In this document: positions 40,741 through 54,027 of the stretch, in pieces
Layout of the letters: each line of letters opens with the position of its first letter
How positions within the stretch are numbered: the stretch's first letter is position 1
The notes under the pieces: model-generated
Databases searched by the model: none
Seen by the model: the letters and a program-made list of their open reading frames with translations, nothing else
What the model was told of the DNA's origin: nothing
Position numbers and translations under genes: made by a program
NCBI GenBank assembly: GCA_965215345.1
Contig: CBDCDL010000001.1
Coordinates: forward strand, 320,163 to 384,162
Reading direction: 5' to 3'
Length of the DNA: 64,000 bases
Source: Spirochaetia bacterium
GTDB taxonomy: Bacteria; Spirochaetota; Spirochaetia; SZUA-6; Bin103

Positions 40741-41955
40741 ATGAGTTCAGAGTGTTGCGGATGGGACGATCTGCTGGCTCGCTCCGTGCCGAGCGAACCG
40801 GTCGCGCGCACCGCGCATCCGACGGCCGCCTACGACTTCGGGGTCGCCTATCCCGATCCCGACTCGCTGCCGCTCGACGAACTGGTCGAGTGCCTGCGTG
40901 ACGAGCTGGCCGTCGCCGGCCGCAGCCTGGCGCACTACCCGCACCCGCTCGGTTACCCGCCGCTGCGCGAGTGGCTGACCGGCCGGCTCGCCGAGACCCG
41001 TGGATTCACGGTGGACGCCGACAGCATCCTCCTGGGCTCCGGGTCGAGCGAGCCCAATTTCCTGGTCGCGCAGGCGCTGGTCGATCCCGGTGACGTGGTG
41101 CTGGTGGAGGACTTCACCTATGCCGGCACGCTCGGCATCCTGCGCCGCTTCGGCGCCGACATCCGGGGCGTGGAGTCGGACGACGAGGGCATGCTGCCCG
41201 ACTCGCTGGAGTACCAGATCCAGGCGGCACTGGACGACGGCAAGCGCGTGAAGGCGGTCTACACGGTGCCGACCTTCCAGAATCCGCTCGGCTGGGTGGA
41301 GTCGATGGCGCGGCGCGAGGCGGTGAGCGAGATCGCCGCCCGCTCCGGCGTGCCGGTGTGGGAGGACGACTGCTACGTCGATCTGGCCTTCGAGGGACAG
41401 GAGGTGCCGGCCGCCATTCGCGCGCTCGACGACAGCGGCCGCACGATCTACGTCGCCTCCTTCTCCAAGAACATCGGACCGGGCATGCGGATCGGCTACG
41501 TGACGGCTGCGCCGGCGCTGATGGATCGGATGATGGCCGTCAAGGGCGTCGGCGCCGTCAGTCAGTTCACGGCGATGGCCGTGCACCGGTATGCGGAGAG
41601 CGGTGGGCTTGCGGCCCACATCGACCGCGTGCGCGGCCTGCTGCGCGCCAAGCGAGACGCCATCCTGACCGCGCTCGACGCGCACCTGGGCGGCCGCGCG
41701 CGCTGGACCAGCCCGTCCGGCGGGCTGTTCGTGTTCGTGCAGATGCTCGACGGCTCGGACGCCGTGGCCGCCAGCGAGCGCGGGGCCGAGAACGGGGTGC
41801 TGTTCGCGCCGGGACCGCGCACCGCCGCCGACGGCGTGTCGGGGCGAGACCGGATGCGGTTGTGCTTCGGCTGGAACAGGCCGGACGAGATGGACGCCGG
41901 CATCGCGGCGCTGGCCGGGCTGCTGCAGCCGGAGCTGGCCGCGGTCAGCGGCTAA
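40741..41955 (+). CDS. PLP-dependent aminotransferase class I/II (2-aminoadipate transaminase/LysN-like), first gene of the operon that continues into the DPA genes.
   Basis: 404 aa. LGSGSSEPNFL, TVPTFQNPLG, FSKNIGPGMRIGY. There is a 19-nt gap to the next gene. Confidence 0.8.
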   Translation: MSSECCGWDDLLARSVPSEPVARTAHPTAAYDFGVAYPDPDSLPLDELVECLRDELAVAGRSLAHYPHPLGYPPLREWLTGRLAETRGFTVDADSILLGSGSSEPNFLVAQALVDPGDVVLVEDFTYAGTLGILRRFGADIRGVESDDEGMLPDSLEYQIQAALDDGKRVKAVYTVPTFQNPLGWVESMARREAVSEIAARSGVPVWEDDCYVDLAFEGQEVPAAIRALDDSGRTIYVASFSKNIGPGMRIGYVTAAPALMDRMMAVKGVGAVSQFTAMAVHRYAESGGLAAHIDRVRGLLRAKRDAILTALDAHLGGRARWTSPSGGLFVFVQMLDGSDAVAASERGAENGVLFAPGPRTAADGVSGRDRMRLCFGWNRPDEMDAGIAALAGLLQPELAAVSG

Positions 41956-41973
41956 GCTAAGCTAAGGCTCGAC

Positions 41974-50321: not shown

Positions 50322-53278
50322 ACGAACGATCCGAAAGATATGCGGATTTCCTCCGAAAAGCACGAGTAATCTCTGCTGCATTGCCGTGGTTGGCGCTGCT
50401 GGGCTGGCTGGCCTCGGTGTCCTGGTTTCTGACCGACGACGCCTTCATCAGCTTTCGCTACGTCCGCAACCTGCTGGAGGGCCACGGCCTGGTATACAAT
50501 CCCGGCGAATATGTCGAGGGCTATTCCAACTTCCTCTGGATACTCGAACTGGCCGTGATCTGGGGTCTGTTTGGCGTGCGGCCGGAGCAAGCGGCGCCGT
50601 GGCTGTCCGTCGCTTTCACTGCCGGCACCATCGCCGCGATGACGTGGTGGATCACACGCCTGCCGTGGCTGCGCCACAGGGGTCTGGTCGCATGGATGGC
50701 CCTCGGCATCGTTTGCTCCAGTGCAACCTTCGCGGTATGGACCTCCGGCGGCGGGCTGGAGACGCGGCAATTCACCTTCTTCATCTTGCTGGCTGTCGTC
50801 TGCCTGAGCCTCTATCGCGACAGAGCCGCCGGTCTGCTGGCGGCTTCATTGAGCTTGGCCGCAGCGTCCTTGACCCGGCCTGAGGGGCCGATGATCGCCG
50901 CCTGCTGCTTCGGCTGGTTCGCGCTCCAGGGGATGGTGGACAGGGGTCGGCCGGGGCAGCACCGGGACGGCCTGCGAGCCCTGTTCTACCTGACCGCCCC
51001 CTGCGTCGCGCTGGTGGCGGCCCATTACCTGTTCCGTTACGCCTACTACGGCGAGTGGCTGCCCAACACCTACTACGCCAAGCACGTCGGTCCGTGGTAC
51101 GAGTCGGGCTTCCGCTACGTGTGGGCAGCTGCGCTGGAGACGGGCTTGTACTTGCTGATTCCGCTGGCACTCCTGGCCCTGCGAGAGCGTTGGCGGCAGT
51201 ACCGGGACGGGACCTATGCGCTGGCGCTGATTTTGATCGGCGCGCATCTGGCCTACGTGATGCGGATCGGCGGCGACCATTTCGAGTACCGCCCGCTGGA
51301 CTTCTACTGGCCGTTACTCGCACTGTCGGCGGCTGAGGGGATCGCTTGGGCCGGTTCCCGCGTCGCTTTAGTTATAGAGCGCTTTAATCTGGCGCCCCCC
51401 CGGGGGAGGATTCTGGTGGACGGAACCAGGACTTTCGCGCTCATCCTGTTTGTCCCGATCTTCTTCTATTCCGGCGCCATGCAGGCAGCCCTATTGTTCG
51501 AGGGCGCTACGATACGCGAGAGGATATGGAAGCTGCATATCGATCTCAATGAAGAGAACGCCGGGTGGCTGCTGGCCGCGCCGGGGATGTCCGCGTTGGT
51601 CGCCATATCCAACGACCTGCGCCGTCAGTCTGCCGCCCACTCTGTCGCTTCACCCTTCACGGAACACCGGGAGTTCGCCAATGCCCGATTGCGAAACTGG
51701 AAGCCCTACGAGAACATGGAGCGGGGAGTGATTCCTGATGACGCGCTGATGGCTGGGATCACTATCGGTATCCAGTTTTATTACGTTCCGGACCTGAAAG
51801 TCATCGACATCCTCGGTTTGACCGACGCGACGGTGGCGCGCAATCCGGTCATCAAACCCAACCACCGGCGCGTAATCGCCCATGACCGCCGGCCCCCGCC
51901 CGGATACGTCGAAGAGCGAGGTGTCAACTTCTCGGTGCGTCGTGCGGCTTCCAGCGAATCCGAAGCGTTGAGCCGCGCGGAGTACGCTTTGAAGGTCGGC
52001 CCCGGCCTGTGGATGCCCTTTGACTCCCCTAACCAACAGTGGGTACTCGATCGTTTTGCATGGAGAGATTCGTTTGCCAAGCGTGCAAGTATGCGCGATT
52101 ACTTGGCAACTCTGGTAGCAAATAGTAAATCGGTGATCCGCTCCGAATTCGACGTGTATCTCGACGGGAAGGAGCTGATCTACGTCAAGCGAGGGTGCAA
52201 CGACGCGGCCGTCGCGCTGCGATTCTTCGTGCACCTGACGCCGATCGACCGGAGCGACCTGCCCGAGCATCGCAAGCAGTACAAGTTCGACAACCTCGAC
52301 TTCAGGTTCGAGGATGCCGGCGGCGTCAGAGAGGGCGATGTGTGCGCGGTAACGCGGGAACTCCCGGACTACGAGATCGCCGAGATCACAACCGGCCAGT
52401 ACGTCTCCGGCGGGGAGCAGACCTGGAGGGTGGCATTCTCGACGGGCGGCACGCCGCCACAGCCACAGCAGATCGCGACAGCAGCAGCGCAGCACGTCGG
52501 CACGGTCAGCGAGCAGCGTGAGGTCGAGGCGGGCGTCAGTATCGACTCCCTCGTGGATCGTATCGAAGCGTTGGGAGGGCCTGTCGTCAGTTCGGAGTTC
52601 GACGTGTACCTCGACCGGAAGGAGCTGATCTACGTCAAGCGAGGGTGCAGCGAGGAGGCCGTCACGCTGCCGTTCTTCGTGCACCTGACGCCGATCGACC
52701 GGAGCGATCTGCCCGAGCATCGCAAGCAGTACAAGTTCGACAACCTCGACTTCAGATTCAAGGATGCGGACGGCATCAGAGAGGGCGACGTCTGCGCGGT
52801 AACGCGGAGGCTCCCGGACTACGAGATCGCCGAGGTCAGAACCGGCCAGTACGTCTCCGGCGGCGAGCAGACGTGGAAGGTGAAGTTCCAGCCGGGTCAG
52901 ACGCCGCCGGTACGCTCCCTGCTGGACCGCATCGAAGCGCTGGACGGACCAATCATCAGCTCTGAGTTCGACGTATACCTCGACGGAAAGGAGCTGATAT
53001 ACGTCAAGCGTCAGTGCAGTGAGGCGGACGTCACGTTGCCGTTCTTCCTGCATCTGACGCCGGTCGATACGAACGACCTGCCCGAAGGTCGCAGGCAATA
53101 CAAGTTCGACAACCTCGACTTCTCCTTTGCCAAGATCGGTGGGATCAGAGAGGGAGGCGCGTGCGTGGTGACGCGGACGCTTCCCGACTACGACATCGTC
53201 GAGGTCAGAACGGGCCAGTATCGAAAGGTGGACGGGGGCTGGGAGCACCCCTGGAAGGGCGCGTTCGCCACGCCATGA
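50318..53278 (+). CDS. Second GT-C-fold membrane glycosyltransferase (paralog of the gene at 46374-50321) with three C-terminal copies (B-A-C) of the same repeat domain.
   Basis: ATG overlaps the previous stop (ATGA). N-terminal [45 protein letters not shown] (GT-C first-loop DD motif, ArnT/Emb-like); ~10-12 TM segments. Repeat units near-identical to gene A's (e.g. 52201-52520 versus 48781-49100). Confidence 0.7.
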
Positions 53279-54027
53279 ACGAACGAGCCGAGACGGCGCT
53301 GGTGATCGGCGCCACGTCGGACATCGGCCGCGCGATCGCGCGCACGCTGGCGGACGCCGGCTGGGCGGTGCAGCTCGCGGCGCGCGACCGGGCGCGGCTG
53401 GAACGGGAAGCGCGCGACGTTCGCGTACGCGCGCAGGCTGCCGTGAGCGTGCATCGCTGCGACGTGCTCGACGCAGACGGAGGTGTCTCGATGCTCGATG
53501 AGCTCGATCCGCTGCCTGGCGTGGCCGTGTGCGTCGTGGGAATGCTCGGCGATCAGGCCGAGAGCCAGCGCGACCTCGCCGCCGCGGAGCGGGTGATGCG
53601 GACCAACTACGTCGGCCCCGCGCTGCTGATGGGCGCCCTTGCCGAACGGTTCGAGCAGCGCGGCAACGGCGTCCTGGTGGGCGTCAGCTCGGTGGCGGGC
53701 GAGCGAGGGCGCGCCGCCAACTACGTCTACGGATCGGCGAAAGCGGGGTTCACGGCGTTCCTGTCCGGGCTGCGCAACCGGCTGGCCGGTGCCGGCGTGC
53801 ACGTGGTGACGGTCAAGCCGGGCTTCGTGCGCACGCGCATGACCGACGGCATGGACCTGCCGGCGCGGCTGACCGCGCAGCCGGATGAGGTGGCGCCGTC
53901 CGTCCTCCGGGCGGTTCGCCGGCGCCGCGACGTGGTCTACGTGCGCCGTGTCTGGCGTCCGATCATGCTCATCGTGCGCGCCGTCCCGGAGCGGCTCTTC
54001 AAGCGCATGTCCGTCCGGGCGAGGTAG
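53275..54027 (+). CDS. dprE2: Decaprenylphospho-2'-keto-ribose reductase-like SDR (DprE2 ortholog).
   Basis: 250 aa. ATGA overlap with the GT-C gene. Aligns along its length with Mtb DprE2: [61 protein letters not shown], and the C-terminal [26 protein letters not shown] tail. Confidence 0.8.

Follow-up and report, generated by a model that had tools for sequence, protein, structure and literature searches.

D-Arabinofuranose glycoconjugates and the DprE1/DprE2 route are viewed as a hallmark of mycobacteria and as a target of tuberculosis drugs; elsewhere, we know of only isolated examples of the route. The decaprenyl-phosphate-arabinofuranose (DPA) pathway of mycobacteria and corynebacteria comprises Rv3806c, Rv3807c (presumably a separate enzyme of the PAP2 type), DprE1, DprE2 and Rv3789, and is accompanied by the arabinosyltransferase AftB. 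The GtrA/GtrB/GtrC O-antigen modules of Salmonella, Shigella and phages are horizontally mobile and phase-variable. In the contingency loci of Campylobacter, Neisseria, Haemophilus and Helicobacter, the reading frame is toggled by the length of long G/C tracts, which lie within or 5' of glycosyltransferase genes, and runs of 16-23 G are intrinsically hypermutable through slipped-strand mispairing. In Pseudomonas aeruginosa the D-arabinofuranose (D-Araf) cluster PsPA7_6245-6249 has the order phosphatase, phosphoribosyltransferase, GtrA-like protein, DprE1, DprE2, and the group IV pilins are arabinosylated by TfpW, a GT-C glycosyltransferase with an essential DDx motif (10.1101/2020.04.19.049825). 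The locus described here is an island at 40689-54016 (+ strand) of a 64,000-nucleotide stretch from a Spirochaetia bacterium (contig CBDCDL010000001.1; the whole stretch is referred to as the window). It carries counterparts of these donor-pathway genes together with two GT-C transferases, and we regard it, with moderate confidence, as a horizontally mobile, phase-variable arabinofuranosylation cassette.

The same five donor functions are present as in the mycobacterial pathway. The phosphatase is a HAD domain fused to the UbiA phosphoribosyltransferase, whereas the mycobacterial phosphatase is assigned to a gene of its own, and the GT-C proteins are only 18-21% identical to AftB and carry additional Ig/FN3-like repeats at their C-termini. 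The cysteine of DprE1 that is the target of benzothiazinones is an alanine in the island protein, there is no Emb, AftA, AftD or mycolate context, and the host does not belong to the Corynebacteriales. The order of the DPA genes is that of PsPA7_6245-6249, but a gene for a secreted protein and both GT-C genes are placed between dprE1 and dprE2. TfpW, which was compared by its description, has a TPR domain at its C-terminus and is encoded beside pilA; here beta-sandwich repeats take that position, the GT-C genes form variable arrays and no pilin gene is nearby.

With the GtrABC modules the locus shares its logic, namely the synthesis of a polyprenyl-phosphate monosaccharide, a GtrA protein and a variable transferase of the GT-C type that acts outside the cytoplasm. 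The donor is made by UbiA, DprE1 and DprE2 rather than by GtrB, an enzyme of family GT2, the predicted sugar is Araf instead of glucose, and switching is proposed to occur by homopolymer slippage, in contrast with the Dam/OxyR epigenetics of the Gtr systems. The contingency loci named above share with it the long intragenic and 5' G/C tracts, the toggling of the frame by tract length and lengths that vary between isolates (here between two assemblies). Unlike in those loci, the tracts are unusually long (up to 23 bases), the bacteria are uncultured, high-GC, environmental or symbiotic and belong to several phyla, and one tract would gate donor synthesis rather than a transferase. From all of these systems the locus differs in its HAD fusion, its GT-C arrays between dprE1 and dprE2, an undescribed C-terminal domain and its mobility across phyla.

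In the explanation that we favour, the island was acquired horizontally and specifies a three-component surface modification of the Gtr type, with D-arabinofuranose in place of glucose. The UbiA domain would convert phosphoribosyl pyrophosphate and polyprenyl phosphate to polyprenyl-phosphate-ribose-5-phosphate, the fused HAD domain would remove the 5-phosphate, and DprE1 (with FAD) and DprE2 (with NAD(P)H) would epimerise C2 to yield polyprenyl-phosphate-arabinofuranose. GtrA would help to present this lipid at the outer face of the membrane, where the two AftB-like GT-C proteins would move Araf onto an extracytoplasmic acceptor, probably held by their Ig/FN3-like C-terminal repeats. A tract of 21 G would gate the first committed enzyme, HAD-UbiA, and hence the whole pathway, while in relatives the tracts would gate single GT-C genes; the outcome would be a population with variable surface arabinosylation.

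Gene order and donor-pathway enzymes

Genes were called by third-position GC and then checked by homology, the GC content of the window being 58-72%. Related loci (L001-L068) were those returned by a scan at one genome per species; the taxon names given for these and other L-numbered loci are the record titles or labels of metagenome-assembled genomes (MAGs).

The island opens with an aminotransferase of class I/II, dependent on pyridoxal phosphate and MocR/MppQ-like (40741-41955; Pfam PF00155, 1.8e-28). It is followed by the HAD phosphatase-UbiA phosphoribosyltransferase gene (41974-43439; Rv3807c-like and Rv3806c-like), a small membrane protein of the GtrA family (43442-43864; Rv3789- and PsPA7_6247-like), a DprE1-like FAD oxidase (43861-45192), a secreted protein (45273-46283), GT-C 1 (46320-50321), GT-C 2 (50318-53278) and a DprE2-like short-chain dehydrogenase/reductase (SDR; 53275-54027), all on the + strand. 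ATGA overlaps are found at three junctions (43861, 50318, 53275) and the remaining gaps measure 2-80 nt. The first-pass annotation, made from the letters of the window, had listed the same functions in one tightly packed run; its inventory and coordinates were right, while its order has to be corrected in one respect, as dprE2 is not the neighbour of dprE1 but the last gene, after both GT-Cs. A scan for promoters and terminators gave no signal above background, and neither tRNA genes nor Rfam families were found in the window.

The HAD-UbiA gene had been described as one polypeptide. As assembled it is not one open reading frame, since the 21 G shift the frame; after repair, the protein matches the NCBIfam model NF006088/PRK08238 over positions 5-479 of 482 with 541 bits (cutoff 351). 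The models for decaprenyl-phosphate phosphoribosyltransferase are matched at 1e-40, 4e-36 and 1e-28, all below their own cutoffs. The DxDGS and NDxxDxxxD motifs can be read in the translation, for which two frames are needed. Judged by its sequence, the fusion thus belongs to an established family and is not a novelty.

GtrA is recognised by NCBIfam NF037976 (144 bits, cutoff 50) and by Pfam PF04138. The DprE1-like protein aligns with DprE1 of M. smegmatis (4aut) over residues 30-441 with an E-value of 1.6e-89, and the HGKNHH and Y-x-AKD (YLAKD) motifs are kept. The best family of the DprE2-like SDR is the generic PRK07102 (346 bits, cutoff 267), and a TGxxxGxG-like motif and YxxxK are present. 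The genomic pairing of dprE1 and dprE2 is kept in at least nine loci. The claim that the locus holds the enzymology for a DPA donor together with candidate arabinosyltransferases therefore stands as far as homology goes, with the proviso that the set is not intact as assembled, HAD-UbiA being frameshifted at the poly-G.

An ordinary arabinan locus of the Corynebacteriales, named at the outset as a possible alternative, does not fit: each gene of the cassette has its closest relatives in MAGs that bear the labels Proteobacteria, Acidobacteriota, Nitrospirota and Tectomicrobia. Among the NCBIfam models that score best against the two GT-C proteins there is none for Emb or AftA, and the DprE1-like protein is related only distantly to the mycobacterial enzyme, below the level of an orthologue.

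Distribution and exchange of the cassette

The record titles of the 68 loci name Dehalococcoidia, Caldilineaceae, Candidatus Entotheonella, Alpha- and Gammaproteobacteria, Pseudomonadales, Nitrospirales, Bryobacterales, Vicinamibacterales, Latescibacteria and Thermoanaerobaculia. Complete MAG chromosomes predominate, and several copies per genome are common. GT-C genes occur together with HAD-UbiA, GtrA, DprE1 and DprE2 in at least 12 of the 68, with identities to the window proteins of 59-77% for HAD-UbiA, 64-76% for GtrA, 74-85% for DprE1 and 73-82% for DprE2. The recurrence of the same gene set in so many other loci argues that the block is not a chance co-occurrence.

The core of HAD-UbiA, GtrA, DprE1, a variable GT-C array and DprE2 is 65-92% identical in protein sequence among MAG chromosomes of several phyla, the carriers in this range being labelled Alpha- and Gammaproteobacteria, Nitrospirales, Bryobacterales and Entotheonella. 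DprE1 is 92% identical between a Nitrospirales locus (L041) and a Thalassobaculaceae locus (L033), 88% between a Pseudomonadales (L008) and an alphaproteobacterial locus (L013), and 85% between the window and a Bryobacterales locus (L022); the copy in a Caldilineaceae locus (L023) is 40-44% identical to all others. The pairwise identity matrices are incongruent with taxonomy. As a control, the genes that flank the island in the window reach at most 25-46% identity in the same loci. Mis-binning is an unlikely source of the pattern, since in a Dehalococcoidia chromosome the GT-C array lies amid rpoC, tig, clpP and clpX. Integrases and insertion sequence (IS) elements flank or interrupt the cassettes of L013, L008 and L012. 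Taken together, these comparisons indicate that the cassette has moved across phyla by horizontal transfer. The system is thus no peculiarity of this genome, which has a single representative of a cassette that is widely shared, moves horizontally and varies in its GT-C arrays.

A second copy of the island, from another sample (L070), allows the unit to be delimited. In blastn, the block 40689-54016, which starts about 50 nt 5' of the aminotransferase and ends within the last codons of the SDR, matches L070 4327-17271 at about 98% identity in a different context, and nothing else in the 10.6 kb of flanks of L070 matches the 64-kb window. The interval picked out in the first-pass annotation (40741-54027) therefore coincides, by sequence comparison, with a discrete transferable unit; the aminotransferase and the secreted protein belong to it in this lineage.

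Divergence between the two copies is a mosaic across genes. Synonymous divergence (dS) is 0.007 or less for GtrA, DprE1, the secreted protein and GT-C 1, and rises to 0.033 for GT-C 2, 0.067 for the aminotransferase, 0.088 for DprE2 and 0.15 for UbiA, which suggests recombination between island alleles. The junction of GT-C 1 with GT-C 2 (50150-50345, 196 nt) is 92% identical to that of GT-C 2 with dprE2 (53107-53302), and GT-C 2 and dprE2 both start with MNER; the duplicated junctions resemble a scar left when a cassette was inserted or duplicated. Fragments of the 3' end of dprE1 and the 5' end of dprE2 adjoin GT-C genes in eight other loci. The duplicated junctions and these fragments point to the GT-C array, placed between dprE1 and dprE2, as an insert that undergoes recombination.

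Two genes that the first-pass annotation had counted in the operon-like run, those of the aminotransferase and the secreted protein, are treated here as lineage-specific passengers of the island, on the basis of their distribution. The aminotransferase reaches no NCBIfam family at cutoff and has no tblastn match in L001-L068, for which it was rejected as a conserved cassette part; its L070 copy is 96.5% identical. The secreted protein itself is real: it is a beta-rich protein of 336 residues with a signal-peptide-like N-terminus and an internal duplication. It has no Pfam, NCBIfam or PADLOC match and is absent from all 68 related loci. Its homologues number only 21, mostly of about 215 residues, and no DPA genes are near them in the two contexts examined (L071, L072); as a conserved cassette part it was likewise rejected.

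Some single loci may be described for what they show of the cassette in other settings. In the alphaproteobacterial MAG L013, four tyrosine integrase genes and an IS110 transposase flank the cassette (232-2494, 13322-19890) and may be its transfer vehicle. In the Caldilineaceae locus L023, divergent DPA genes (39-48% identity) are found at 8303-14612 beside a GT-C gene whose 5' end bears a run of 21 C; this DPA set is possibly native, and the system with its tract control may be older in the Chloroflexota. L001 holds only short fragments of HAD-UbiA, DprE1 and DprE2 (7262-7552, 12082-12324) around an intact GT-C gene, and in L033 the HAD-UbiA gene (935-2306) is split into two frames near residue 305, where there is no homopolymer of ten or more bases. 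The two loci illustrate cassette erosion or other frameshifts. L074 (4795-12229), which comes from the sample that also gave L070, has a GT-C 1-type gene immediately 3' of an SDR, with an ankyrin-repeat protein of 501 residues, PSCyt/PSD-domain proteins and an IS21 element nearby.

Homopolymer tracts and their possible role

The run of 21 G (42325-42345, + strand) lies in the HAD domain and is the sole homopolymer of nine or more bases in the 64 kb; the expectation for a run of 12 G is 0.01 per dinucleotide-preserving shuffle of the window. The full fusion of 488/489 residues is read only with 19 or 22 G in the window and with 15 or 18 G in L070, and other tract lengths truncate the protein at about 160 residues. 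At the same site L070 has 16 G and is also out of frame. Homologues read V-GAAG-C at this position and are four residues shorter, so that the tract is a lineage-specific expansion of a loop. An internal start for UbiA past the tract (GTG 42267) was considered and rejected as unconvincing, with a GAGG only 1 nt upstream.

Similar tracts are concentrated in the cassettes of other genomes. Of 41 G/C tracts of ten or more bases in the 68 loci, 33 fall in cassette genes ±200 nt, a share of the DNA that amounts to 38.7% (binomial p = 5e-8). Fifteen tracts are 15-23 bases long. Many lie in the 5' part of GT-C genes between shared, conserved flanks, and in-frame and out-of-frame states are both seen. 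The commonest site is just past the N-terminal leader TTPKDTA..RWRAL.ARCL of one GT-C subtype, 5' of the first transmembrane helix (TM1). Tracts directly 5' of or inside HAD-UbiA are present in L041 (C22), L020 (C10) and L013 (G16), and a loop of GT-C 2-type genes at about codon 360 carries C7G5 in the window (51395-51406, + strand), C10G7 in L070, C16 in L013, C10 in L018 and G13/G10 in L026/L028. In their position and length, the G/C tracts have the anatomy of contingency loci, and the 21-G run looks like an on/off switch, a candidate for control by slipped-strand mispairing.

The leader with a poly-G behind it is carried by the GT-C 'type B' genes of L008, L012, L021 and L009, across phyla. 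GT-C 1 of the window has the same leader (46380-46450) with no tract.

The frameshift of HAD-UbiA can also be read in ways that involve no switch. The operon may be constitutive and always on, in which case the tracts would merely encode glycine or proline loops and the frameshifts would be homopolymer errors of long-read assembly. Homopolymer lengths in a long-read consensus can be off by one, and each copy is one base from an in-frame length; the tract is in an insertion-tolerant loop (VGAAGC in homologues), as the GT-C 2 tract is in a loop between helices, and the UbiA frame is under purifying selection. Two independent assemblies nevertheless differ by 5 G, both out of frame, a polymorphism that rests on these two genomes; GT-C genes repeatedly carry tracts of 10-23 bases at the 5' end, between conserved flanks, and G runs of 16-23 bases are hypermutable. 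We consider a constitutive operon unlikely.

Still less probable, in our estimate, is that the island is decaying: HAD-UbiA would be a pseudogene, this lineage would have lost the donor pathway, and the GT-Cs would be remnants. The frameshift in both copies, the remnants in other loci (the fragments in L001 and the split HAD-UbiA of L033) and an excess of nonsynonymous over synonymous differences in GT-C 1 between window and L070 (11 against 2, small numbers) would all fit such a state. All other genes are intact, however, and a single slippage event would restore the fusion. The 363 UbiA codons 3' of the tract are open in both copies, with a dN/dS of 0.22 over 68 differences, which argues against decay.

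Entotheonella is known from sponges. That taxon, the mix of taxa as a whole and the ankyrin-repeat and PSCyt neighbours in the contig from the sample of L070 are the basis on which a sponge association of the cassette-bearing MAGs is inferred, and it is inferred only. The genome notes of the Aquatic Symbiosis Genomics project report the same mix of taxa from sponges; the accessions of the loci could not be tied to them. No paper linking sponge symbionts to DPA genes or to homopolymer phase variation was found in the literature. As a tentative extension, which we hold to be possible and would not press further, a single mobile DPA cassette with interchangeable, homopolymer-switched AftB-like GT-Cs may have spread over at least six phyla in one habitat, probably marine sponges. 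There it would act as a contingency locus for the whole community, with stochastic variation of surface glycans, for example against phagocytosis by the host or against phage. If so, no phase-variable glycosylation system would have been described before in uncultured animal symbionts, nor a major ecological role of D-Araf outside the Actinobacteria.

More generally, the island suggests that uncultured bacteria of many phyla widely exchange the DprE1/DprE2 route as an accessory module, joined to an expandable array of AftB-like transferases with an undescribed C-terminal domain and apparently under the control of hypermutable G/C tracts. Were this confirmed, it would provide a molecular handle on symbiont surface variation inside a phagocytic host and extend contingency-locus biology beyond pathogens; many divergent homologues of DprE1 and AftB would become available for structure-function work.

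Transferases, repeats and flanking genes

GT-C 1 (1333 residues) consists of a membrane domain with the DD motif, a soluble domain and five C-terminal repeats (48363-50318, + strand); GT-C 2 (986 residues) has three such repeats (52139-53275, + strand). The catalytic parts are about 26-29% identical to each other. The two had been described as paralogous; the C-terminal arrays of five and three copies were missing from that description. Neither protein has a Pfam domain. Homologues of GT-C 1 number 280, and those of the catalytic domain of GT-C 2 more than 2629, the best being 65-77% identical.

An AlphaFold2 model of GT-C 2 (residues 1-715, alignment of 87 sequences) has a pLDDT of 77.5 and a pTM of 0.75. 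In Foldseek its best PDB matches are the mycobacterial AftB structures 9dlf (E 5e-8) and 9dlh (1e-6), followed by ArnT, oligosaccharyltransferases, EmbA/B and AftA. A profile of the GT-C family searched against 177,635 PDB sequences matches AftB alone (E 3e-12), over 236 positions of the N-terminal region including the DD motif. This motif follows TM1 in all GT-C types that were compared; D40/D41 are conserved in at least 90% of the 87 sequences, and GT-C 1 aligns with the AftB-like family alignment, in which both residues are nearly invariant. The NCBIfam AftB model, by comparison, gives the GT-C 21.9 bits against a cutoff of 1050, and it is therefore not an AftB orthologue. By these comparisons the two proteins are AftB-like, with a GT-C fold and an Asp-Asp motif in the first extracytoplasmic loop, and they probably attach arabinose to the cell surface.

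It is also conceivable, with about the same low probability as decay of the island, that the GT-Cs use another lipid-linked donor, such as polyprenyl-phosphate-ribose, -mannose, -glucose or aminoarabinose, and that the DPA linkage is one of several contexts. ArnT and the oligosaccharyltransferases are the next structural neighbours, a type C paralogue matches Pfam PMT_2, and most GT-C arrays of the Chloroflexota have no DPA genes within 10 kb. On the other side, AftB is the only solved protein matched by the family profile, and in at least 12 loci the GT-C genes are enclosed by dprE1 and dprE2, with overlapping stop and start codons.

Several observations weigh against a mobile, phase-variable arabinofuranosylation cassette and have to be set beside the evidence for it. 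DprE1 and DprE2 had been called clear orthologues of the mycobacterial enzymes; homology over the full length is borne out, but on the NCBIfam models the scores are 433 bits for DprE1 (equivalog cutoff 500) and 198 bits for DprE2 (cutoff 250). HAD-UbiA is out of frame in both copies, for which inactivation and homopolymer miscalls in the long-read consensus are possible causes. Tracts of 10-12 bases are not very improbable in DNA of 65-70% GC, by an estimate from simple composition, so that the argument rests on the location of the tracts and on the 15 of at least 15 bases. All Dehalococcoidia loci and most Caldilineaceae loci are among those whose GT-C arrays stand without DPA genes within 10 kb. 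Finally, no acceptor candidate (a pilin, S-layer or O-antigen gene) was found near the cassette in the window. As to the acceptor, what is known of the Chloroflexota envelope, together with the presence of GT-C arrays in that phylum, argues against lipopolysaccharide alone.

The C-terminal tandem repeats are about 100 residues long, and the internal repeat units are 91-100% identical in DNA. The repeat is modelled as a beta sandwich of seven strands (pLDDT 90.6), for which Foldseek gave no significant match (best E 0.027) and Pfam has no family. At 50% identity, 1843 protein clusters contain it, with 1-10 copies; among the matches listed it lies mostly at the C-terminus. GT-C 1 contains an exact internal duplication of 652 bp (48394-49045 and 49213-49864), and has five repeats in the window and four in L070. 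Between GT-C 1 and GT-C 2 the repeats are about 90-95% identical in DNA, despite the low identity of the catalytic domains; near-identical repeats on divergent catalytic domains point to concerted evolution or gene conversion.

The remainder of the window holds metabolic, non-diagnostic genes on either side of the island. Fragments of DUF4143 and AAA-ATPase_like proteins, an AAA_16 protein and an NHL-repeat protein are encoded at 28786-30776 and 61464-63958, both on the - strand, a gene content typical of symbiont genomes or of genomes rich in mobile elements. Two large open reading frames (22687-24501 and 37259-39292) have no Pfam match.

Directly 3' of the island are three tandem paralogues of an ATPase of 532 residues (54060-58859, + strand) with a PD-(D/E)XK-like motif at the C-terminus; the third is without its N-terminus and is apparently frameshifted. 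Pfam AAA matches to them are weak only, and there is no PADLOC match. They were rejected as part of the island in this lineage, being outside the block shared with L070 and absent from L070. In other loci they do travel with the cassette: the paralogues are 79-83% identical to copies scattered through the GT-C arrays of loci from Entotheonella and Pseudomonadales (L008, L011, L012 and L024).

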